Positions 5,850 through 31,920 of a DNA stretch of 33,092 nt are shown here, piece after piece. This DNA comes from Candidatus Omnitrophota bacterium (GTDB taxonomy: Bacteria > Omnitrophota > Gorgyraeia > Duberdicusellales > 4484-171), in the NCBI GenBank assembly GCA_018823915.1, contig JAHJHM010000127.1, positions 1 through 33,092 on the forward strand. Direction: 5' to 3'. Position 1 is the stretch's first letter; every line of letters starts with the position of its first letter. The notes below the pieces were generated by a model. It was not told where the DNA came from, made no database searches, and saw only the letters and a list, made by a program, of their open reading frames with translations. A program made the translations under genes and the position numbers.

Positions 5850-6989
5850 ATGAGATTTATAAAAGAACTAAAGAATCTAAAAGTTTATAAACCGGGTAAA
5901 CCAATTGAAGAAGTTAAGGGATCTTTAGGTTTGGAAACGGTATACAAGCTTGCCTCCAATGAAATTCCTTTCCCTCCTTTGTATATCCGTAAAAGTATCC
6001 AGGCAGAATTAGAGAATATTAATCGTTACCCCCAAGGAAGTTGTCATTATTTAAGAAAATTTTTAGCTAAAAAATTTAGAATCAATGAGAGCCAAATTGT
6101 TTTTGGTAATGGCTCGGATGAAATAATTGTGCTTACCTTGCGAGCCCTAATAGAAAAAGGCGATGAGGTTATAGTTGCTTATCCTACATTTTTAATTTAT
6201 GAAATTCAGGCAGCGATTTCCGGAGCGAAAGTGGTAAGGGTTCCTTTAAAAGAGTTTCATTATGATTTGCCAGAGCTGGCGAAAAAAGTAAACAGAAAGA
6301 CGAAAATCATTTTCATTGCTAATCCGGATAATCCCACAGGAACTTATTGTAACCATAAAGAAATAAGTAATTTTCTTAAATTAATACCCAAAAGCGTATT
6401 GGTTTATTTTGATGAGGCTTATTTTGAGTTTGCCCCTGGAGATTTCCCAAAAACAGAGCAATTTTTAAGGATGAGAGATAATGTTATTTTTACCCGAACA
6501 TTCTCTAAGGCTTATGCCTTGGCAGGCTTGCGAATTGGTTATGGAATCACAACACTTAAAATCGCTGCTGCCTTAAATAAAGTCAGAGAACCGTTTAATA
6601 TAAATAGATTTGCTCAAGTAGCTGGTGTTTGCGCTTTAGAAAATAAAGGTTTTTTAAAAAAGGTGATACCTTACATTGAGAGAGAAAAAAAGTATCTCTA
6701 TGGTGGTTTAAGTGGTTTAGGAGTTTTTTTTGTAGAAAGCGCCGCTAATTTTATCCTTATTGATCTTAAAAAAGATACAAAAAGTCTTTATAATTACCTT
6801 TTAAAGAAAGGGGTTATCGTACGGGAATTAAGAGGCTGGGGGTTGAAGAATTTTTTTCGAGTGACTATTGGATTGCATAAGGAAAATAAGAAATTCATAG
6901 GATGCCTTAGGGGCTATCTACAAAAAAGTAATAAGTGCGGTCGTAGTATAGTTGAATTTAAACATTGTCCCTCGCGCCTGAATATCTGA
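5850..6989 (+). CDS. hisC: Histidinol-phosphate/aromatic aminotransferase (class II PLP aminotransferase)
   Basis: YPDP-like region (NPDNPTG) and the SFSKAYALAGLRIGY PLP-lysine motif. ATG 5850 is preferred over GTG 5829. The last approx 20 codons (KSNKCGRSIVEFKHCPSRLNI) read into repeat sequence; see findings. Confidence 0.88.
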   Translation: MRFIKELKNLKVYKPGKPIEEVKGSLGLETVYKLASNEIPFPPLYIRKSIQAELENINRYPQGSCHYLRKFLAKKFRINESQIVFGNGSDEIIVLTLRALIEKGDEVIVAYPTFLIYEIQAAISGAKVVRVPLKEFHYDLPELAKKVNRKTKIIFIANPDNPTGTYCNHKEISNFLKLIPKSVLVYFDEAYFEFAPGDFPKTEQFLRMRDNVIFTRTFSKAYALAGLRIGYGITTLKIAAALNKVREPFNINRFAQVAGVCALENKGFLKKVIPYIEREKKYLYGGLSGLGVFFVESAANFILIDLKKDTKSLYNYLLKKGVIVRELRGWGLKNFFRVTIGLHKENKKFIGCLRGYLQKSNKCGRSIVEFKHCPSRLNI

Positions 6990-7033
6990 AAAATCTCTTG
7001 CGACATTTTTCAGAAGCGCTTCGGGATCAATTC
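6964..7033 (+). repeat. 70-nt structured dispersed repeat, copy A
   Basis: 67 of 70 positions are identical to 12212-12281. Internal perfect 9-bp stem CTGAAAAAT/ATTTTTCAG with a 10-nt loop, and an outer CCC..GCGC/GCGC..GGG stem. The hisC stop codon (6987-6989) lies inside it. Confidence 0.9.
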
Positions 7034-12211: not shown

Positions 12212-12281
12212 ATTGCCCCTCGCGCCTAAATATCTGAAAAATCTCTTGCGACATTTTTCAGAAGCGCTTCGGGATTAATTC
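12212..12281 (+). repeat. 70-nt structured dispersed repeat, copy B
   Basis: See copy A. Three substitutions, none in the 9-bp inner stem. Confidence 0.9.
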
Positions 12282-12328
12282 TCCGCCTTAGTCCAGCAGG
12301 ACACCCTGTTGGGTAGGCGGAGAATTAA
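12275..12328 (+). promoter_or_regulatory. 54-nt two-tier hairpin in the leader of the glycine-zipper lipoprotein gene, 3' arm abutting the SD
   Basis: Outer 14-bp perfect stem TTAATTCTCCGCCT/AGGCGGAGAATTAA. Inner 8-bp stem CCAGCAGG/CCTGTTGG (one G-U) with loop ACAC. SD AAGGAGG at 12327-12333 overlaps the last 2 nt of the stem. Confidence 0.6.
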
Positions 12329-16459: not shown

Positions 16460-16921
16460 ATGAAAAAAGTCAGTGAAGGCTCGCTTCTTGCGAAAGCGCT
16501 AAATTATTCTTTTCTTCTCCTAAGGTATAGGCCGCGAAGCAGAGAGGAAATTATCTCCCGTCTGAAGGAAAAAGGATATCCGTCATCCCTAATAGAGGGA
16601 ACATTAGATTATCTGGAGGAAAAGAATTATATTAATGATGAGGAGTTCGCGCGGACAGCTATTTTTTCTTCTTTGCAGAAGGGGTATGGAAGGAGAAGAA
16701 TTGAATTTATGCTTAAAAAGCTAGGGATTGAGCAGAGTTTAATTGAGGAAAGTTTAAAAAAATACGATTTTAAGGAAAAAATTAGAGAATTAGTAGAAAA
16801 AAAGATTGATTATTATAAAGGGCCGCAAAAATATCAGAAAATTTTAAACTATTTAATTTCAAGAGGCTTTGACCAGGACGAAATTCAAAAAGAGATGCAG
16901 AATTTGGGAGTTGTGGAATAA
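16460..16921 (+). CDS. recX: RecA regulator RecX
   Basis: 153 aa with a three-fold helical-repeat pattern (ALNYSFLLLRYRPRSREEIISRLKEKGY...). Conserved recX-alaS neighbourhood. Stop overlaps the alaS start (TAATG). Confidence 0.85.
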   Translation: MKKVSEGSLLAKALNYSFLLLRYRPRSREEIISRLKEKGYPSSLIEGTLDYLEEKNYINDEEFARTAIFSSLQKGYGRRRIEFMLKKLGIEQSLIEESLKKYDFKEKIRELVEKKIDYYKGPQKYQKILNYLISRGFDQDEIQKEMQNLGVVE

Positions 16922-19581
16922 TGAAGACAGATGATTTAAGAAAGACTTTTTTAGAGTTTTTTAAAAGCAAAGGCCACAAAATTTATCCTTCGGATAGTTT
17001 AGTCCCTGATGACCCCACCATTTTTTTTACTTGCGCAGGGATGAATCAGTTTAAACCTTATTTTTTGGGAGAAAGAAAGGATTGTCAACGCGCGGCCTCG
17101 GTTCAGAAGTGTTTGCGCACGGACGATCTCTTAAAAGTAGGCAAAACCGCTTATCACCATACTTTTTTTGAAGTGTTAGGCAATTTTTCTTTTGGTGACT
17201 ACTTTAAAAAAGAAGCAATAGAATTTGCATGGGGATTTCTCACTCAACATTTGAACATAAAACAAGAGGATTTGTGGATTTCTGTTTACAAGCTGGATGA
17301 GCAAGCTTACCGAATCTGGAAAGATTATATCGGTGTTTCCCAAGATAGAATAGTTAAGTTGGCAGAAGCAAGTAATTTTTGGCCGGCTAATGCTCCTGCC
17401 CTTGGACCTAACGGCCCTTGCGGCCCGTGTTCAGAAATTTTCTTTGATAAGGGAGAAATTAGCGGGTGCGGAAGAGGAGAATGTAATCCTGCTTGTGACT
17501 GCGGGAGGTTTGTGGAAGTTTGGAATTTAGTTTTTACTCAGTTTAATCGTGTAGGGGAAAACAAATTGGAACCTCTTCCTCAGAGGAATATTGATACTGG
17601 AATGGGGATAGAGAGGATGGCTTCTGTTTTGCAGGGCAAAAACACTAATTTTGAAATCGATATTTTATCTCCCGCGGTAGAGTTTGTAAAAGAATTACTA
17701 CGAACTACGAACTACCCTCCGATTGCGCTCAGGGCAGGCGAACTACGAACTACGAATTCAATAAATGCTATTACCGATCATACGCGGGCAGCAACTTTTG
17801 CCATTGCTGATGGAGTGTATCCAACAAATGAGGAAAGAGGTTATGTGGTAAGAAAAATTATCAGAAAAGCTGTATGGAAAGGGCATCTTCTGGGAAGGCG
17901 TAAGGCTTTTCTTTATGAATTAGTCAGTTGCTTTGCCGAGTTGATGAAGGAGCCTTACCCGGAAATTAATGAAAAGAAAGAAGTCATTAGCAGGGTAATT
18001 CGCGTGGAAGAAGAAAGATTTCTTCTCACTTTAGAAAACGTAAAACAGCAGTTCTCAGTAATTATTGACGGTTTAAAAAAAGAAAATAAGGATATAGTGG
18101 GAGCTCCTGAGTTATTCCAGTTCCATGATACTTATGGGTTTCCCTTAGAGTTAAGTAGAGAGATTGCATGGGCTCACAACATGAAAATAGACGCCCAGGG
18201 GTTTGAGGTATTATTAAAAGATCAGCAGGAGCGTTCCCGTAAGAGGAGCAGTTTTGTGGATAGTGTTTTTTTAAAAGATTCTCCAGGTATTAAAATTCTT
18301 AAAGAGAATAAAACAAAATTTGTGGGATACGATTGCACAATTCACCAAGCCCTCGTTCTATTAATCAGAAAGGGCGAAAAGGATGTTGAGGTTCTTGCCG
18401 AAGGCGAGGGAGGCTTAATTATTTTGAAGGAAACACCTTTTTATCCTGAAAGCGGCGGGCAATTATCTGATAGAGGGATCATTAAAACCCAAAGAGGAGA
18501 GTTTTTGGTTGATGAAGTGTTTAGGTTGGCAGATGCTATCATTCATAAAGGAAGAATGATAAATGGGAAAATCCAAAGTGGCGAAATTGTTAACGCAATG
18601 GTAGAGGTAAAAAGAAGAAGAGCGATATCTCGCGCGCACACTGCTGCTCATCTTCTCCAGGCGGCATTAAGGGTAACATTGGGCGCCCATGTTGCCCAAC
18701 AGGGTTCGTTGGTTGACGATGATAGGCTGCGTTTTGATTTTACGCATTTTGAAGGTATTAGAAAAATTAACTTAAAAGAAATCGAGCAGTTAGTAAATAA
18801 GTATATATTAAGAGGGAGTAAGGTTGAAAAATATATTATGTCCCAAGAGGAAGCAAGAAAGCAGGGGGCTTTAGCTTTTTTTAAAGATAAATATGCCGAA
18901 TATGTAAGAGTCGTTTCTATATCTAATCTCAGTAAGGAACTGTGCGCGGGAACGCATCTTGAGAATACTTCCGGGATTGGGCTTTTCTCCATTATTTCCG
19001 AATCTTCGATAAGCAGCGGGATAAGAAGGATAGAGGCAGTAGTGGGTGAGAAAGCATACAGTCATTTCCAAATTTTAGAAACAAACATAAAAGATGTTGC
19101 GGATGTGTTGAACTGCAATCCCCAGGATTTACCAAATTTTACAAAGAAACTTAAAGAAGAACTTAAAAAAGAAAAAGAGAAGGTGGAAGTATTAAATAAA
19201 GAGATTCTAACATTCTCGATAAAGGATATTGTTAAAAATAAAAAAACCGTAGAGGGAGTAAATGTGTTAGTGTATGAGTTACCAGGAGCTAGCAAAGAAA
19301 GCCTCCTGTGCCTTTATGATTTATCGCGCAAACAAATTAGCTCTTTGTTTGTTTTTTTCTATAGCTTGCTTTCCAAAAAGAGCATTTTTGTTTGCGCGAT
19401 GAGTGATGATATCGTGGATAAAGGTTTTAGCTGCAAGAAATTTATTTCTCTTTTCGAGAAAGAATTATTTTTAAAAGGCGGCGGCAGAGATAGCTTAGTT
19501 CAGGGTATTATAGAAAAAAAACAGGAAAATTTTAGAGAAAAGGTTGAAAAGAATCTTGTCGGATTCTTAAATAGGCAGTAG
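16921..19581 (+). CDS. alaS: Alanine--tRNA ligase
   Basis: 886 aa. FTCAGMNQFKP, GPCGPCSEIF, editing-domain HTAAHLL and CAGTH motifs, C-terminal DHHA1 domain (GGGR). Carries an in-frame repeat insertion at 17698-17756. Confidence 0.97.
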   Translation: MKTDDLRKTFLEFFKSKGHKIYPSDSLVPDDPTIFFTCAGMNQFKPYFLGERKDCQRAASVQKCLRTDDLLKVGKTAYHHTFFEVLGNFSFGDYFKKEAIEFAWGFLTQHLNIKQEDLWISVYKLDEQAYRIWKDYIGVSQDRIVKLAEASNFWPANAPALGPNGPCGPCSEIFFDKGEISGCGRGECNPACDCGRFVEVWNLVFTQFNRVGENKLEPLPQRNIDTGMGIERMASVLQGKNTNFEIDILSPAVEFVKELLRTTNYPPIALRAGELRTTNSINAITDHTRAATFAIADGVYPTNEERGYVVRKIIRKAVWKGHLLGRRKAFLYELVSCFAELMKEPYPEINEKKEVISRVIRVEEERFLLTLENVKQQFSVIIDGLKKENKDIVGAPELFQFHDTYGFPLELSREIAWAHNMKIDAQGFEVLLKDQQERSRKRSSFVDSVFLKDSPGIKILKENKTKFVGYDCTIHQALVLLIRKGEKDVEVLAEGEGGLIILKETPFYPESGGQLSDRGIIKTQRGEFLVDEVFRLADAIIHKGRMINGKIQSGEIVNAMVEVKRRRAISRAHTAAHLLQAALRVTLGAHVAQQGSLVDDDRLRFDFTHFEGIRKINLKEIEQLVNKYILRGSKVEKYIMSQEEARKQGALAFFKDKYAEYVRVVSISNLSKELCAGTHLENTSGIGLFSIISESSISSGIRRIEAVVGEKAYSHFQILETNIKDVADVLNCNPQDLPNFTKKLKEELKKEKEKVEVLNKEILTFSIKDIVKNKKTVEGVNVLVYELPGASKESLLCLYDLSRKQISSLFVFFYSLLSKKSIFVCAMSDDIVDKGFSCKKFISLFEKELFLKGGGRDSLVQGIIEKKQENFREKVEKNLVGFLNRQ
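17698..17756 (+). mobile_element. In-frame 45-nt insertion in alaS: GC-rich core flanked by a 14-nt direct repeat made of CTACGAA heptamers
   Basis: CTACGAACTACGAA occurs at 17698-17711 and 17743-17756, an offset of 45 nt (15 codons). The protein reads LRTTN-YPPIALRAGE-LRTTN. Core GATTGCGCTCAGGGCAG (17721-17737) matches 20930-20946 at 14 of 17 positions. Confidence 0.6.
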
Positions 19582-19628: not shown

Positions 19629-20843
19629 ATGAGAGTAGTAAGAAATTTAGATAGTCTGGAAAAGCTAATTTTAAAAAAGAGAGCAAAGAAAAATAAGATA
19701 AATGAACGGGTAAATAAAATCATAAAAAATGTTAAAGAAAGAGGAGATGATGCTTTAGGAGAGTATACAAGAAAATTTGATAAAGTTAAAATTTCTCCCA
19801 ATGAGCTAAGGGTGAGTGAGGTAGAGATAAGCGCGGCCTTTAACGCGTTAGATTCTTCTTTAATTTCTTCTTTCAAGTTCGCTATAGATAATGTAACTAA
19901 GTTTTATAAAGAGCAATTGCCTAAGACGCAAAGGCTTAAAGAGGCAAATGGCAAGGTTCTCATTACCCGCTATATTCCTTTGGAAAGAATAGGGATATAT
20001 ATTCCCGCCGGTACTGCTCCCTTAATTTCTACAGTTTATATGTCTGTTATTCCCGCGCGGGTTGCAGGAGTAAAAGACATAGTTTTAACCTCACCCGCCG
20101 CTTTAGATAAAAGCATAAACCCTTTTATTCTTGCTGTTGCATCTTTGCTTAAGATAAAAGAGATTTATCGCGTAGGAGGAGCTCAGGCAATCGCCGCTTT
20201 AGCTTATGGAACGAAGACAATCAGAAAGGTAGATAAAATTATCGGCCCAGGAAATGAATTTGTTACAGAGGCAAAACGACAAGTTTTTGGAGAAGTGGGC
20301 ATTGATATGCTTGCCGGGCCATCAGAGGTAGTAATCCTTGCTTCTAAGGACGCGAATCTAGATTATCTTACTGCTGACTTAGACGCTCAAATGGAACATT
20401 CCGGCGGCGTAGGCATTGTGGTTACTAATTCCCGTAAGATAATAAGAGAGTTAAGAAAGAAGAGGATTGGAGGGTTTATTTTGCGAGTGAGAAATTTAGA
20501 TGGTGCTGCTGCGGCAGTGAATAGAATTTCTCCCGAGCACTTGGAAATTCTTACCAAGAAACCTTCTTTGGTTTTAAAAAAGATTAAGAACGCGGGGGCA
20601 ATCTTTTTAGGAGAGAATACCCCTGTAGCTTTAGGAGATTATACTGCCGGCCCCAGCCATATTTTGCCTACTTCCGGTACGGCTCGTTTTTTCTCTTCTC
20701 TTTCTGTGAGAGAGTTTCTTAAAGAGGTTCATATTATAAGTTATACTAAAAAGGCATTGCAGGAGGAAATAGGAGCTTTAGAGAAAATCGCCTCCTTAGA
20801 GGGAATGAATAAGCATATAGAGAGTGTTAGGAAGAGGCTATGA
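19629..20843 (+). CDS. hisD: Histidinol dehydrogenase
   Basis: Family-typical IYIPAGTAPLISTVYMSVIPARVAGV and QMEH motifs. ATG 19629 is preferred. The track start 19596 is a TTG inside the alaS terminator palindrome. Confidence 0.92.
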   Translation: MRVVRNLDSLEKLILKKRAKKNKINERVNKIIKNVKERGDDALGEYTRKFDKVKISPNELRVSEVEISAAFNALDSSLISSFKFAIDNVTKFYKEQLPKTQRLKEANGKVLITRYIPLERIGIYIPAGTAPLISTVYMSVIPARVAGVKDIVLTSPAALDKSINPFILAVASLLKIKEIYRVGGAQAIAALAYGTKTIRKVDKIIGPGNEFVTEAKRQVFGEVGIDMLAGPSEVVILASKDANLDYLTADLDAQMEHSGGVGIVVTNSRKIIRELRKKRIGGFILRVRNLDGAAAAVNRISPEHLEILTKKPSLVLKKIKNAGAIFLGENTPVALGDYTAGPSHILPTSGTARFFSSLSVREFLKEVHIISYTKKALQEEIGALEKIASLEGMNKHIESVRKRL

Positions 20844-20882
20844 CTGGAGTTTTCCTATTTTTTTCTGACCGGAAAACTCCAG
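20844..20882 (+). other. 12-bp perfect hairpin directly after the hisD stop
   Basis: CTGGAGTTTTCC (20844-20855) and GGAAAACTCCAG (20871-20882) with a 15-nt T-rich loop. No downstream U tract. Confidence 0.7.
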
Positions 20883-20886
20883 AGTT

Positions 20887-20982
20887 CAAAATGCAAAATG
20901 AAAAATGCAAAAGTTTAAATCAACCATTTGATTACACTCAGGGTAGATGGCGAGCGAAGTCGAACCATCAAAATTCAAAAGT
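20887..20982 (+). repeat. Composite element: CAAAATG-family heptamers (x4), a 54-nt GC-richer core, then CAAAATT CAAAAGT heptamers
   Basis: Heptamers at 20887-20914 and 20969-20982. The core contains GATTACACTCAGGGTAG (20930-20946) and a GATGG-CGA-GCGAAG-TCG-AA-CCATC hairpin (20946-20969). Confidence 0.75.
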
Positions 20983-21017
20983 CTTAATATTTTCAAAGGA
21001 TAAAAAAGAGGGGGGAT

Positions 21018-21608
21018 ATGAGAAAAGCAAGAATAAGACGAAAAACTAAAGAAGTGGATATAACTGTGGAATTGAATCTTGATGGTGAGGGGAAACACAG
21101 GATAGATACAGGGGTAGATTTCCTAAACCACATGCTTTCTTTATTTGGTAAGCATGGAATTTTTGATTTGAAAATAAAAGCTAGGGGTGATTTAGGCGTG
21201 GACATCCATCATGTCAACGAGGATTTAGGGATTGCTTTAGGATGTACTTTTTTAAAGTCTTTAGGCAATAAAGAAAAAATATCCCGTTTTGGATTTAGTT
21301 TTGTTTGTATGGACGAAGCCTTGATTAGGTGCGTTTTAGATATTAGCGGAAGGCCTTATCTTAAAGTAAGGCCTGATAAATTAAAAATTATTGATGATAG
21401 AAACTATACTTTTTCCCATTTCAAACAATTCCTAAGAGCATTTGTAGATCATTCCGGAATAAGTGTTCATTTGGATATTTCCGAAGGTGAGGATTACCAC
21501 CATATTATAGAGGCTTGCTTTAAGGCTTTAAGCATAGCCCTATGTGCGGCAGTGAGAATAGAAAAAAGGAAAAAAGGGGTACCTACAACTAAAGGAAAGA
21601 TTGATTAA
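21018..21608 (+). CDS. hisB: Imidazoleglycerol-phosphate dehydratase
   Basis: IDTGVDFLNHML and DYHHIIEACFKAL (D-x-HH-x2-E) motifs. G-rich SD GAGGGGGG lies upstream. Confidence 0.94.
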   Translation: MRKARIRRKTKEVDITVELNLDGEGKHRIDTGVDFLNHMLSLFGKHGIFDLKIKARGDLGVDIHHVNEDLGIALGCTFLKSLGNKEKISRFGFSFVCMDEALIRCVLDISGRPYLKVRPDKLKIIDDRNYTFSHFKQFLRAFVDHSGISVHLDISEGEDYHHIIEACFKALSIALCAAVRIEKRKKGVPTTKGKID

Positions 21609-21618
21609 AGACGAAAGG

Positions 21619-21656
21619 TAGTTTATAGCTATAAACCATACACCATAAACTATAAA
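21619..21656. repeat. Palindrome GTTTATAGCTATAAAC plus heptamer array CTATAAA CCATACA CCATAAA CTATAAA (reverse complement of the GTTTATG family)
   Basis: 7-nt period from 21629 to 21656. This is the reverse complement of the units seen at 9681-9715 and 25364-25398. Confidence 0.85.
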
Positions 21657-21673
21657 CTTTTAGAAATAACAGT

Positions 21674-22438
21674 ATGATAATTATTCCCGCTATTGATTTG
21701 TGGAAAGGAAATGTGGTTCGTTTTATGCGGGGAAGCCCGGATTTCTCTAAGGTTTATAGTGCGAACCCTATAGAAATAGCAAGAAAATGGGCCAAAGAAG
21801 GAGCGAGGCTTCTTCATCTTGTCGATCTTTCTGCGGCTTTAAGTGAAGGAGACAATGTAGAAATTATTAGAGAGATTTTAAAAGAAGTGAACATAGACGT
21901 AGAAATAGGAGGAGGGATAAGAGATTTAAGGCGCGCGGAAGAGTTAATTCAGATGGGAGCTAAACGTTTGATAATAGGGACAAAAGGATTAGATGAGAGA
22001 TTCCTTGAAGATTTGATGCTTTCTTTAGGCAGAGATAGAGTAGCGGTTAGTGCGGATGTCATTGACGCGTTTGTGGCCGTAGAAGGGTGGCAGAGAAAAA
22101 CAGAGCTTAGAGGGTTAGATTTTATAAAATACCTTCAGGATAAAGGGGTAAAGTGGGTAATTTATACTGACATTTCTCGCGATGGGACATTGCAGGGAGT
22201 AAATTTGGAAGCGATAAAGAAACTTGCCATATTTGAAAAAATAAACCCCGCCCTTTGTTCGAAAGAACGAAGCTTTACAAGGGGCGGGATAAATCTTATA
22301 GTTTCAGGAGGAGTGTCTTGCCTGGAGGATATTAAAAACATAAAAAAAGAAGCACCTTTTGTTTGGGGAATAATTGCCGGAAAAGCTTTGTATGAAGAAA
22401 GAGTCAATCTACCTCAGGCAATTTCCCTGCTTGATTAA
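21674..22438 (+). CDS. hisA: Phosphoribosylformimino-5-aminoimidazole carboxamide ribotide isomerase (HisA)
   Basis: IIPAIDLWKGNVVR start, IGGGIRD, DISRDGTLQG, SGGVS motifs. Contains a 16-codon in-frame insertion at 22241-22293. Confidence 0.92.
   Translation: MIIIPAIDLWKGNVVRFMRGSPDFSKVYSANPIEIARKWAKEGARLLHLVDLSAALSEGDNVEIIREILKEVNIDVEIGGGIRDLRRAEELIQMGAKRLIIGTKGLDERFLEDLMLSLGRDRVAVSADVIDAFVAVEGWQRKTELRGLDFIKYLQDKGVKWVIYTDISRDGTLQGVNLEAIKKLAIFEKINPALCSKERSFTRGGINLIVSGGVSCLEDIKNIKKEAPFVWGIIAGKALYEERVNLPQAISLLD
22241..22293 (+). mobile_element. In-frame 48-nt insertion in hisA: 43-nt GC-rich palindromic element bounded by 5-nt direct repeat ATAAA
   Basis: ATAAA at 22241-22245 and 22289-22293. 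Arms CCCGCCCTTTG (22247-22257) and CAAGGGGCGGG (22278-22288) form an 11-bp stem with one G-U. Removing 48 nt restores EKINLIVSGG, which matches the spacing I recall for Thermotoga HisA. Confidence 0.65.
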
Positions 22439-22519
22439 AGGGGACAGACGATTAAAGGGGACAGACACTTTTTTATTGAATAAAAAAGTGTCTGTCCCCT
22501 TTAATCCCCCCTTTAATCC
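22433..22519. repeat. Tandem 17-mer (GATTAAAGGGGACAGAC x2) forming a 26-bp perfect palindrome, extendable to 37 bp; possible bidirectional terminator between hisA and rnfC
   Basis: Arms 22450-22475 and 22481-22506 are perfectly complementary, with loop TTGAA. An outer 11-bp pairing joins 22433-22443 with 22508-22518. The first unit contains the hisA stop codon. Confidence 0.85.
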
Positions 22520-22525
22520 AAGATA

Positions 22526-23812
22526 ATGATCAAGATAGAAGAACATAAACAGCCTCAAGTTGGCTTGGCAACAGAGGGGTTTCTTAATCCTAAGAAACTA
22601 TATCTTCCTTTGTCTCAACACACAGGAAGGCCGTCTTTGCCTTGCGTAAACATAGCCGATATAGTAGAAGAAGCAGACCTGCTTGCCAAAGAAGATGGGT
22701 TCATTTCAGCAAGGCTTCATTCGCCTAAAAGAGGAAAGATTTTAAATATAACAGAAGGGTGTCATCCTAGTTTAAAAAGGGCAAAATGTATTATCCTGGA
22801 GTGCCAGGCGCAAGAAAAAGAATATTCTTATAGGAAGAATGTAGAAAGTTTGGACAAAGAAGAATTGCGGGAAATTATCAAAAATAGCGGCATCGTGGGT
22901 TTAGGAGGCGCGGCTTTCCCTACTCATGTAAAGTTAAACCCGCCTAAAAAAATTAATACTTTGATTATTAATGGCTGCGAGTGTGAACCTTATTTGGCTT
23001 GTGATTATCGCTTAATGATAGAGAATCTAAGAGAGATATTCAAGGGGATAGAGATAATTTGTAAAATCATCGAACCGGATGAAGTAATTTTTGCCCTAGA
23101 AGATAATAAAACCGAAGTAGTCAAAAAATTAAATCTTTTAATAAGCACTAAACGAGTTAATTTGCCTAAAACCAAATCAGCTATTTTAAAAACTGCTTAT
23201 CCGCAAGGCGCGGAAAAACAACTGATCTATTCTGTTACCAGGCGAAAAGTCCCTTCGGGGAGACTTCCTTTTGATGTTGGGTGTTTGGTTTGTAATGTCG
23301 CCACAGCTTTCGCAGTTTATGAGGCAGTTTATCTAAATAAGCCGTTAATCGAACGATTAGTAAGTTTTGCTGGAGACGCGATAGCAACTCCAAAAAACAT
23401 ACGGGTAAAGATAGGAACAACCTTGAAAGAACTTTTTGATGCGGGGTATCTAAAATTTAAGCATGAACCAAGAAAGATTATCTGTGGCGGTCCGATGATG
23501 GGAGTAGCTTTAGATGGTTTGGATTATCCTATTTTAAAAGGTACTGGTGGATTTTTGTTTTTAAGCAAGAATTTAGATATTGCAGAAGAAGACCCTTGTA
23601 TTAAATGCGCAAGATGCGTAGATTCTTGTCCGATGAATCTCCTGCCTTTGGAGCTAGCCAGGAGAATAAAAAAGGAAGAATTTGCTGCCTTAGATGATTT
23701 TAGCATTGCCGATTGTATTGAGTGCGGCTGCTGTAACTATGTTTGTCCGGCAAAGATACCTCTAGTGCATTATATAAAAGTAGGGAAGAAATATACTTCG
23801 AGGAAGGATTAA
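22526..23812 (+). CDS. rnfC: Rnf electron-transport complex subunit C
   Basis: GLGGAAFPTHVKL NADH/FMN-site motif. Two 4Fe-4S motifs, CIKCARCVDSCP and CIECGCCNYVCP. Confidence 0.93.
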   Translation: MIKIEEHKQPQVGLATEGFLNPKKLYLPLSQHTGRPSLPCVNIADIVEEADLLAKEDGFISARLHSPKRGKILNITEGCHPSLKRAKCIILECQAQEKEYSYRKNVESLDKEELREIIKNSGIVGLGGAAFPTHVKLNPPKKINTLIINGCECEPYLACDYRLMIENLREIFKGIEIICKIIEPDEVIFALEDNKTEVVKKLNLLISTKRVNLPKTKSAILKTAYPQGAEKQLIYSVTRRKVPSGRLPFDVGCLVCNVATAFAVYEAVYLNKPLIERLVSFAGDAIATPKNIRVKIGTTLKELFDAGYLKFKHEPRKIICGGPMMGVALDGLDYPILKGTGGFLFLSKNLDIAEEDPCIKCARCVDSCPMNLLPLELARRIKKEEFAALDDFSIADCIECGCCNYVCPAKIPLVHYIKVGKKYTSRKD

Positions 23813-31870: not shown

Positions 31871-31920
31871 CCAGCAGGGTGTCCTGTTGGACTACTCAAT
31901 AGAGTGTCCTGTTGGACTAT
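31871..31920 (+). other. 8-bp hairpin CCAGCAGG-GTGT-CCTGTTGG plus a direct repeat of its 3' half
   Basis: The stem sequence is the same as the inner stem at 12293-12312 but the loop is complemented (GTGT vs ACAC). GTGTCCTGTTGGACTA is repeated at 31879-31894 and 31904-31919. Confidence 0.7.

Follow-up and report, generated by a model that had tools for sequence, protein, structure and literature searches.

Yeast mitochondrial GC clusters, including an optional one in var1, are GC-rich palindromes of 30–60 nt that lie in an AT-rich genome, are bordered by short AT-rich repeats and are sometimes intragenic. They are organellar, eukaryotic and present in many copies, and the ribosome skips the byp elements that descend from them. 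Prokaryotic MITEs have inverted ends and, in young copies, flanking direct repeats, can be as short as 39 bp, are single-copy in some genomes and can form in-frame fusions with host ORFs (PMC10969869). RPEs, described in Rickettsia only, are multi-copy units of about 100–150 bp with a conserved peptide (PMC10969869), and REPs, which are mobilised by RAYT, are extragenic, high-copy palindromes of 20–40 nt tagged at one end with GTAG or CGTC (PMC3733652). Here we describe a 43-nt palindrome within hisA of an Omnitrophota bacterium that has the basic anatomy of a MITE: its 12-bp arms fall within the size range of terminal inverted repeats (about 4–30 bp), the ATAAA repeat around it has the form of the target-site duplication seen in young copies, although a microhomology origin is possible, and at 43 nt it lies below 500 bp and has no transposase of its own.

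The window, that is, the whole stretch of DNA analysed (33,092 nt of contig JAHJHM010000127.1), contains a hisA gene whose 254-aa product matched HisA/PriA chains in the PDB with a best E value of 4e-37. This gene carries 48 additional nucleotides, or 16 codons, in frame, which encode NPALCSKERSFTRGGI (Table 1). The original prediction had described the segment as a 43-nt palindrome plus one copy of ATAAA, and the coordinates, the ORF and the alignment all confirmed it. Codon 190 starts at position 22241, and the two ATAAA repeats are in phase with each other, being read as ATA AAC (I190 N191) and ATA AAT (I206 N207). The repeat is exactly 5 nt long and extends neither way, and a 5-nt repeat with this geometry is expected by chance at 0.15–0.31% of window positions. 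The 43-nt element is open in five of its six reading frames. Its GC content is 52%, compared with a background of 37%, and its codon adaptation falls in the lowest 2.4% of 16-codon windows; judged by the sequence, this composition and codon usage are atypical for the genome and fit a non-native origin.

Table 1. Positions of hisA, its insert and overlapping sequence signals in the window
Feature	Position	Strand	Basis
hisA CDS, 254 aa, host gene of the insertion	21674..22438	+	ORF; TIGR00007 HisA, 221.9 bits, E 8e-66
Left ATAAA direct-repeat copy (codons ATA AA-, Ile190-Asn191); candidate target-site duplication or microhomology	22241..22245	+	
43-nt GC-rich palindrome, CCCCGCCCTTTGTTCGAAAGAACGAAGCTTTACAAGGGGCGGG	22246..22288	+	Sequence, folding
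Right ATAAA direct-repeat copy (codons ATA AA-, Ile206-Asn207)	22289..22293	+	
16 extra codons (NPALCSKERSFTRGGI), predicted loop between helix alpha6 (residues 178-187) and strand beta7 (207-211)	22244..22291	+	AF2 model, PDB gap, spacing
Promoter-like TTTACA-17-TATAGT, 10/12 match; −35 box in the right half of the element, −10 box in beta7 codons	22274..22302	+	
Terminator-like site for antisense transcripts: hairpin, then TTTATTTTTTC	22230..22288	−	Minus-strand terminator-like match overlapping the element

In the window HisA, the D of DGTx and the S of SGG lie 41 residues apart, 16 more than the canonical 25, a value shared by 91 of 135 representatives of the family and by 86 of 119 near relatives. 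The original prediction had given the spacing as 23 versus 39 residues, the same difference of 16. In the PDB alignment, the solved HisA/PriA chains were gapped by 12–17 residues exactly at the insert. With the insert removed, KLAIFEKINLIVSGG matched residue for residue KLSVFEDLNIIISGG of the nearest insert-free relative, and without the 48 nt the gene would read ...GAAAAAATAAATCTTATAGTT..., the predicted empty site. Because of the PDB gap, the extra 16 residues of spacing and the clean alignment once they are removed, we consider the 48-nt segment a true insertion. The nearest non-identical HisA was 60% identical, and no close relative with an empty site was available to date or confirm the event.

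At the protein level, the AlphaFold2 (AF2) model of HisA was a confident TIM barrel (pLDDT 91.6; TM 0.85–0.92 against HisA/PriA structures) in which disorder was confined to residues 190–202 (pLDDT < 50), between helix 6 and strand 7. The 16 residues are thus predicted to form a disordered surface loop on an otherwise normal barrel, an excursion at one of its loops. According to the model, the insert lies in the alpha6-beta7 loop, an alpha-to-beta loop on the side of the barrel opposite its catalytic end, where extra residues are tolerated. Alleles of hisA differ by 20 synonymous and 6 non-synonymous changes, and this synonymous excess, together with the intact ORF, indicates at the sequence level that hisA is under purifying selection and functional; a pseudogene reading was rejected because the allele substitutions are mostly synonymous. 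More than 12 independent assemblies, among them NCBI MAGs, Logan assemblies and a JGI contig, carried exactly the same insert, and so did one allele that is 3.4% diverged (L132). This agreement eliminates an assembly artefact and, as far as sequences can tell, means that the insert is fixed in the species.

Folding of the element gave an outer stem of 12 bp with one G-U pair (22247–22258 with 22277–22288), one base pair longer than the 11-bp stem first described, and an inner stem of 3 bp (22259–22261 with 22268–22270). The RNA fold reached −23.5 kcal/mol (z −4.44), a value equalled by none of 200 dinucleotide shuffles, and the DNA fold had a z of −3.65. Among about 6,600 sliding 60-nt windows, the hisA hairpin ranked as the sixth most stable.

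We tentatively favour, as the reading that may well be correct, a single insertion of a minimal non-autonomous, MITE/REP-like palindrome that duplicated ATAAA and persists as a tolerated passenger. On a single occasion, a 43-nt hairpin-forming GC-rich DNA would have entered ATA AAT, the Ile-Asn codons that end the alpha6-to-beta7 loop, and duplicated 5 bp of target, ATAAA; we infer that the element was mobile and that a staggered cut produced the repeat. The donor would most likely have consisted of two inverted ends and little more, in the manner of a MITE or a REP. Survival of the insert would be explained by its length of exactly 16 codons, the lack of stops and a loop remote from the catalytic end. 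We also infer that the ribosome reads through the insert, which would place a disordered 16-residue loop on the surface of a normal HisA and yield the peptides INPALCSK, ERSFTR and GGINLIVSGGVSCLEDIK, and that the insert is neutral, a passenger and no functional module. Its near-perfect symmetry could reflect youth or, alternatively, re-homogenisation by template switching, to which imperfect inverted repeats are known to be prone. Set against a mobile element are the size, which at 43 nt is at the extreme low end for MITEs, the high GC content, since MITEs are typically AT-rich, and the flanking repeat of 5 nt, which microhomology-mediated repair could also generate.

Searches for further copies bear directly on this reading. 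The 43-mer was unique in the window, even when 3 mismatches were allowed, and neither the window nor about 130 kb of loci, from the same species or related, yielded a second or partial copy. JGI metagenomes returned only the same hisA copy and one unrelated GC-rich hairpin, IMG/VR gave no match to the element, and the window contained no transposase or IS with ends matching those of the element. A scan of GTDB with the arms only retrieved 108 generic GC-rich hairpins, mostly from GC-rich unrelated genomes, and is uninformative on copy number in the host, whose own contigs were absent from it. Two Omnitrophota sequences with identical arms (L023 and L070) were rejected as family members, being intergenic, terminator-like hairpins with unrelated loops. 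Other short palindromic repeats do occur in the genome, CCAGCAGG-NNNN-CCTGTTGG being present at 12293 and 31871. Without a second copy, the mobility of the element is putative. The MITE- or RPE-like signature that had been claimed is therefore retained for the anatomy, namely the inverted arms, the 5-bp repeat and the atypical codons, whereas membership of a multi-copy family finds no support in the sequences searched. The original prediction had also conceded that it would fail if no other copy existed and the ATAAA repeat were due to chance; a second copy was indeed not found, but a chance origin of the repeat is not easy to sustain. Nor could alaS be upheld as another such event: its region 17680–17765 folded no better than shuffles (z −0.74), so that it forms no significant hairpin. 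It consists of a GC core between direct repeats, each about 14 nt long, and does not resemble the hisA element in sequence.

Inserts at the same loop were also observed elsewhere. A separate monophyletic clade of HisA sequences carried variable inserts of +8 to +33 codons there. The window HisA lay outside this clade, with 62–64% identity to insert-free sequences versus 54–58% to clade members, in a neighbour-joining tree that was star-like and had no support values. Local DNA alignments between the window insert and those of the clade scored no better than shuffles (p 0.25–0.9), and homology between them was rejected for this reason. It had been argued that an equivalent conserved segment in relatives, free of the palindrome or direct repeat, would speak against an insertion. 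This argument applies in part: moderately close relatives, at 54–58% identity, do have extra segments at this loop, but their sequence and length differ and they are themselves hairpin-coding. Since inserts recur at the same position in a separate clade, the loop can be regarded as a recurrent landing site for hairpin-coding DNA. Judging from the sequences, the alpha6-beta7 loop of HisA is permissive, and such DNA has landed or grown there at least two times.

The strongest alternative, which we consider somewhat unlikely, is a non-mobile, one-off error of local replication or repair (fold-back, template switch, or capture of a short piece of hairpin, for instance the stem of a terminator, when a break is repaired through microhomology), in which ATAAA would be the microhomology. 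It agrees with an element that is seemingly single-copy in everything searched and with the established role of template switching between short inverted repeats in reshaping coding sequence (PMC7202029, PMC8604942). Two Omnitrophota genomes contain stems with the same arms (CCCGCCCTTTG...CAAAGGGCGGG) between genes, as terminator-like hairpins that could be of the donor type, and in the clade member L014 one hairpin arm includes ancestral flanking codons, TTTTCCGCC pairing with GGCAGAAAA, the expected product of fold-back copying. In the window hisA, however, both arms lie wholly within the inserted 43 nt and neither pairs with or copies the adjacent gene; therefore, simple fold-back copying of the flank fails as an explanation. 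In addition, no donor sequence was found, and a symmetric unit framed by a clean 5-bp duplication points more to transposition.

Another alternative, which we judge to be improbable, is that selection maintains the hairpin for a function of its own, as an RNA or DNA structure within the coding region. It could be a site of RNase processing or of stability, make ribosomes pause ahead of the last two beta-alpha units, terminate antisense transcripts, or act as an internal promoter for the rnf genes downstream. The central helix of the clade inserts was paired in 84% of cells, with 5 of 6 pairs changed on both sides, and the covariation score of 0.312 exceeded all 500 shuffles and all slid controls, although it derives from 8 related sequences and a structure taken from one of them, both of which inflate it. 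Significant hairpins persisted in the divergent members L014 (z −3.2) and L127 (z −4.5), but most of the pairing was lost in L012, L125 and L126 (z −0.2 to −1.0), the RNAalifold consensus of the clade was weak (−2.5 kcal/mol), and quasi-palindrome correction would give paired double changes without selection. In the window itself, positions 22181–22311 showed zero substitutions in the 3.4%-diverged allele; zero changes in 53 nt at this divergence, where about 1.8 are expected, are not significant alone. The promoter-like match, for which the element supplies the −35 box, was the best of 8 such sites in the 2 kb scanned (21000–23000), where 4.6 were expected, and is probably incidental by sequence criteria. 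No equivalent motif was present at the inserts of the other clade, whose rplM promoter-like motif is located at the very end of hisA, and an internal promoter in the element was set aside on account of this lack of recurrence. The minus-strand terminator-like site is probably likewise incidental, its T-run being the complement of the pre-existing codons GAA AAA ATA AA. Rfam 15 gave no match at the gathering threshold anywhere in the window, and the only matches overlapping the element were at chance level (E up to 10). The compensatory changes in the clade nevertheless leave room for selection on structure, which would count against neutrality of the passenger.

An old, lineage-wide expansion of the loop, shared by descent with the insert-bearing clade and precisely deleted elsewhere, is very unlikely. 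The inserts do fall in the same loop, at most one or two residues apart, with similar lengths (+16 and +14) and a common P-A...R-G-G pattern, the star-like topology and missing support values of the tree leave latitude for it, and hairpins flanked by direct repeats favour precise deletion. Nevertheless, the window HisA groups with the insert-free sequences, the similarity between the insert DNAs stays within shuffled expectation, and many independent precise losses would be required.

A programmed translational bypass, in which the ribosome would take off at ATA 22241–22243, skip 48 nt and land at the matched ATA 22289–22291 to give HisA of canonical length and a peptide spanning FEK-INLIVSGG, much as in T4 gene 60 or the yeast mitochondrial byp elements, is barely credible: the two codons flank the gap in phase, a stable stem-loop begins 3 nt past the take-off codon, G-rich triplets (AGG/GGG) lie 5–9 nt upstream of the landing codon and the insert is GC-rich in an AT-rich gene, as in byps (10.1101/2022.08.31.505936), but the gap is in frame and stop-free and ordinary read-through gives a full-length protein, whereas the non-bypassed product of known bypass cassettes is truncated (10.1101/2022.08.31.505936), take-off is followed by AAC (7.0 per 1000 codons), neither a stop nor the rarest codon of the insert, and the take-off codon is outside the stem. 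Inteins, introns and CRISPR-type sequences were dismissed because there are only 16 codons and no motif.

If the insertion of a mobile palindrome is placed alongside the inserts of the other clade, a broader and distinctly improbable proposal is that all of them are traces of undescribed, ultra-short (about 40 nt), GC-rich palindromic mobile elements in coding regions of AT-rich uncultivated bacteria, probably Omnitrophota, as a counterpart of the mitochondrial GC clusters, with a hairpin that would be maintained by selection or self-correction and might affect expression or decoding of the host gene. At the loop inserts of the other clade, paired base changes keep the hairpin. Were the hisA insert a member of such a family, selfish DNA inside protein-coding genes would extend from Rickettsia-type elements of 100–150 bp to a smaller, GC-rich form in a poorly known phylum, and it would be seen how tiny palindromes can give conserved enzymes new surface loops. 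Even if the insertion stands alone, it is a clean natural experiment, in which the alpha6-beta7 loop of HisA accepts 8–33 extra residues, and it is useful for TIM-barrel engineering; as a one-off repair scar, it would be a curiosity with no wider consequence.

Compared with described systems, the element resembles MITEs (Coxiella QMITE1, Correia, and ERIC when intragenic) in its inverted repeats and flanking direct repeats, and stable stem-loop transcripts, in-frame host fusions and promoter or terminator side-effects, all known for MITEs, can be counted as common features (PMC10969869). MITEs, however, are as a rule rich in AT, exceed 100 bp and lie between genes in many copies, with a parent IS, whereas the hisA element, at 43 nt, is a GC-rich unit inside a gene of an AT-rich genome, with no further family member found in the sequences searched and no parent IS in the window. 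Like REPs (PMC3733652), it is a short, imperfect palindrome that is GC-richer than its surroundings, but it is intragenic, free of the tag at both ends and seemingly single-copy.

Coding inverted repeats homogenised by template switching offer a different parallel, in that repeats persist in coding sequence, paired changes arise by mutation alone, and protein function and hairpin coexist (PMC8604942, PMC7202029, PMC6649704). Those cases remodel existing sequence or long organellar repeats, and they leave unexplained the arrival of a new 43-nt unit with its duplication. With RPEs, the element shares palindromic DNA in frame in a housekeeping gene, read as an extra peptide at a fold-compatible site in an AT-rich, reduced genome (PMC10969869), given that the hisA ORF is intact and the insert is the only low-confidence segment of the barrel. 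It departs from them in its length (43 nt, or 16 codons), its 5-bp repeat, its phylum and its copy number, no second copy having been found. With respect to the yeast GC clusters and byp elements, the hisA element is bacterial, has one known copy and is expected by default to be read through; it has in common with the GC clusters a GC-rich palindrome in AT-rich surroundings, bordered by short AT-rich repeats and placed inside a coding sequence.

The element lay within the hisA reading frame of an AT-rich window (~37% GC) in which nearly all genes were on the + strand, and the coordinates originally predicted for the two ATAAA repeats and the palindrome were exact to the single base. Since position 22241 is the first base of codon 190, both repeats are in phase, and their codons, ATA AAC and ATA AAT, specify Ile-Asn in both cases, while the 48 added nucleotides code for NPALCSKERSFTRGGI. 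Folding returned the predicted hairpin with one G-U pair, although its outer stem comprised 12 bp rather than 11, with an additional inner stem of 3 bp. The RNA fold reached −23.5 kcal/mol (z −4.44, 0 of 200 shuffles equal; z −3.65 when folded as DNA), ranking sixth in stability among ~6,600 sliding 60-nt windows, and a 5-nt direct repeat in such geometry is expected by chance at 0.15–0.31% of window positions. The insert was 52% GC against the 37% background, and its codon adaptation fell in the lowest 2.4% of 16-codon windows in the window's genes, with rare choices including TCG, CGA and AAC; this atypical composition and codon usage are signs of a foreign origin. Five of the six frames through the element were open.

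Features of the hisA locus, the alaS segment and the loci compared
Feature	Position	Strand	Description
hisA	21674-22438	+	254-aa ORF containing the whole feature
Left ATAAA	22241-22245	+	direct repeat, inside hisA
Palindrome	22246-22288	+	43 nt, inside hisA
Right ATAAA	22289-22293	+	direct repeat, inside hisA
alaS segment	~17690-17760		inside alaS (16921-19581); GC-rich core CCCTCCGATTGCGCTCAGGGCAGGC between direct repeats CTACGAACTACGAA
Gene order			alaS, hisD, hisB, hisA, then rnfCDGEAB operon
Insert-bearing HisA clade			loci L011, L012, L014, L125-L130 (alignment A2)

In this lineage hisA has the rnf operon after it, and hisH and hisF do not adjoin it. Between hisD and hisB (20840-21049) lay a 175-nt gap with a 69-aa mechanical ORF and a hairpin of 12 perfectly paired bp (20844-20882). 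Just past the hisA stop (22433-22506) we observed a tandem pair of GATTAAAGGGGACAGAC and then a perfect 28-bp inverted repeat, the most stable hairpin of the window (−37.8 kcal/mol); TAAAGGGGACAG is likewise found after the hisA stop codon at locus L127 (2238-2252), which is only distantly related.

Sequences of solved HisA and PriA structures aligned over the entire protein, with a 12–17-residue gap precisely at the insert. The DGTx-to-SGG spacing, taken from the D of the first motif to the S of the phosphate loop, was 41 residues in the window HisA. Among cluster representatives at 50% identity, 91 of 135 had a spacing of 25, as did 86 of 119 near relatives, which bears out the predicted excess of 16. 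When the 48 nt were removed, hisA read KLAIFEKINLIVSGG, a position-for-position match to KLSVFEDLNIIISGG of an insert-free relative. We conclude that the observation is genuine, a precise insertion with clear boundaries. The protein scored 221.9 bits against TIGR00007 (HisA equivalog), slightly below the cut-off of 228.95. An AlphaFold2 model built from 27 sequences was confident (mean pLDDT 91.6, pTM 0.89) and superposed on HisA/PriA crystal structures with TM 0.85–0.92; its sole segment with pLDDT below 50 was residues 190–202, between helix 178–187 (alpha6) and strand 207–211 (beta7), so that the insert appears as a low-confidence excursion from a confident barrel. The alpha-to-beta loops of (beta-alpha)8 barrels are found on the side away from the active site, and added residues in the modelled alpha6-beta7 loop should therefore do little harm. 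Just one further large internal indel was seen in the 27 relatives aligned: the HisA relative P0066 carries a tandemly duplicated 17-residue segment (DIARKWQDAGAKVLHVE) close to its N-terminus (alignment A1, columns 34–50).

An identical HisA protein was encoded on 14 contigs, and the 10 that we read showed ~99% identity over hisA with zero differences in the element; all members of the 90% cluster carried the insert. Allele L132 (Logan, SRR13662870) was the most divergent, with 20 synonymous and 6 non-synonymous differences over 765 positions (26 in all). The 53-nt feature was unchanged in it, which proves nothing alone because only ~1.8 changes are expected. These data show that purifying selection acts on hisA and that the sampled 97–99%-identical population is fixed for the insert. 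A longer stretch of 131 nt (22181-22311) was also free of substitutions in L132, where ~4 are expected from the 3.4% difference over hisA, and this could reflect chance, constraint or a recombination tract. The next nearest HisA among 5.8 billion proteins was only 60% identical, and these data included no close relative in which the site is empty.

The search for further copies suggested in the original prediction was negative in the sequences that it covered. The 43-mer occurred once in the window with 3 mismatches allowed, and neither the window nor any fetched locus held a second or partial copy. Scanning the JGI metagenomes with the arms plus four inner bases gave two matches, an unrelated hairpin in 61%-GC DNA and a 1,138-bp contig with the same hisA copy; the latter indicates that the organism is present in that collection, although no copy beyond the hisA one was detected there. 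IMG/VR yielded nothing, and Rfam gave no family match. When the arms alone were scanned against GTDB species representatives, the 108 matches were generic GC hairpins and none lay on a contig of this species; two Omnitrophota matches with the same arms were rejected as family members, being intergenic and terminator-like with unrelated loops.

The alaS segment, originally taken as a second event of this kind, proved to be of different architecture. Its direct repeats are ~14 nt long and duplicate the peptide LRTTN, it adds ~6–7 residues relative to Aquifex AlaRS, it folds no better than shuffles (z −0.74), and it has nothing in common with the hisA element. A short intergenic palindromic repeat, CCAGCAGG-ACAC/GTGT-CCTGTTGG, occurred at 12293-12312 and 31871-31890 with its centre inverted between copies (0 expected by chance), and part of it recurred near 31905-31920. 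These copies resemble a REP-type family, and the one at 12293 is nested in a larger perfect 14-bp hairpin (12275-12328). A ~60-nt intergenic motif (…CCCTCGCGCCT[GA]AATATCTGAAAAATCTCTTGCGACATTTTTCAGAAGCGCTTCGGGAT…), near-identical at 6967-7030 and 12214-12275, lay upstream of two different genes and had no Rfam match. Related AT-rich repeats (GAATATTCAGTG, TGCAAA/TTGCA runs) at both contig ends (72-109, 31640-31720, 31810-31850) suggest that repeated intergenic sequence may lie at the contig breaks.

The original prediction had set its reading against an equivalent segment in other HisA proteins. Extra residues do occur at the same loop, but without DNA similarity to the window insert beyond shuffles. 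Eleven of the nearest relatives had residues added exactly there, amounting to +8, +10, +14 or +33 codons, and a wider list held further inserts. In a neighbour-joining tree without support values they formed one clade, sister to an insert-free sequence, while the window HisA fell outside it among insert-free sequences. Insert length in the clade changes fast, even between sister sequences. Its insert DNA was hairpin-prone (z −3.2 in L014, −4.5 in L127), with pairing largely lost in L012, L125 and L126. Covariation was evaluated in an 8-sequence alignment for a named hairpin with a fixed symmetry axis: 84% of central-helix cells were paired, both sides had changed in five of six pairs, and the score (0.312) was higher than in any of 500 shuffles or any slid control, whereas the unguided RNAalifold consensus was weak. 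That paired changes keep this hairpin is suggestive only, the sample being small and related and the structure taken from one member. On the simplest reading, one permissive loop gained inserts twice, independently, and hairpins have long been kept there either by selection or by template switching, through which imperfect inverted repeats self-correct (PMC7202029, PMC8604942).

For the window insert we tentatively favour, at somewhat short of an even chance, one insertion event involving a minimal palindromic unit that was probably mobile. Such a unit would have entered hisA once, duplicating 5 bp of target (ATAAA), and translation would run through its codons to give a disordered loop that the protein tolerates by virtue of its position. 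An origin in a single repair or template-switching event is less likely but a live alternative, and so, at lower probability again, is a functional hairpin maintained as such. Of the promoter-like sites in the 2-kb region scanned, the best (TTTACA-17-TATAGT, 10/12) takes its −35 box from the element's right half and its −10 box from beta7 codons, and the minus strand carries TTTATTTTTTC after the hairpin, resembling a terminator; neither recurred in the other clade's inserts, and we regard both predicted sites as probably incidental. Programmed bypass, in which the ribosome would skip 48 nt between the in-phase ATA codons as in T4 gene 60 or mitochondrial byps, is hardly credible despite the intervening stem-loop and the G-rich triplets ahead of the second ATA, because the defining take-off aids are absent (neither a stop nor a starved codon follows the first ATA, and the take-off codon lies outside the stem), and ordinary read-through yields an intact protein.

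As the searches revealed no family of copies, and size and peptide depart from those defining RPEs, we do not class the inserted unit as a MITE or an RPE. The likeness originally proposed holds in part: the element resembles a very small MITE in anatomy and an RPE in consequence.
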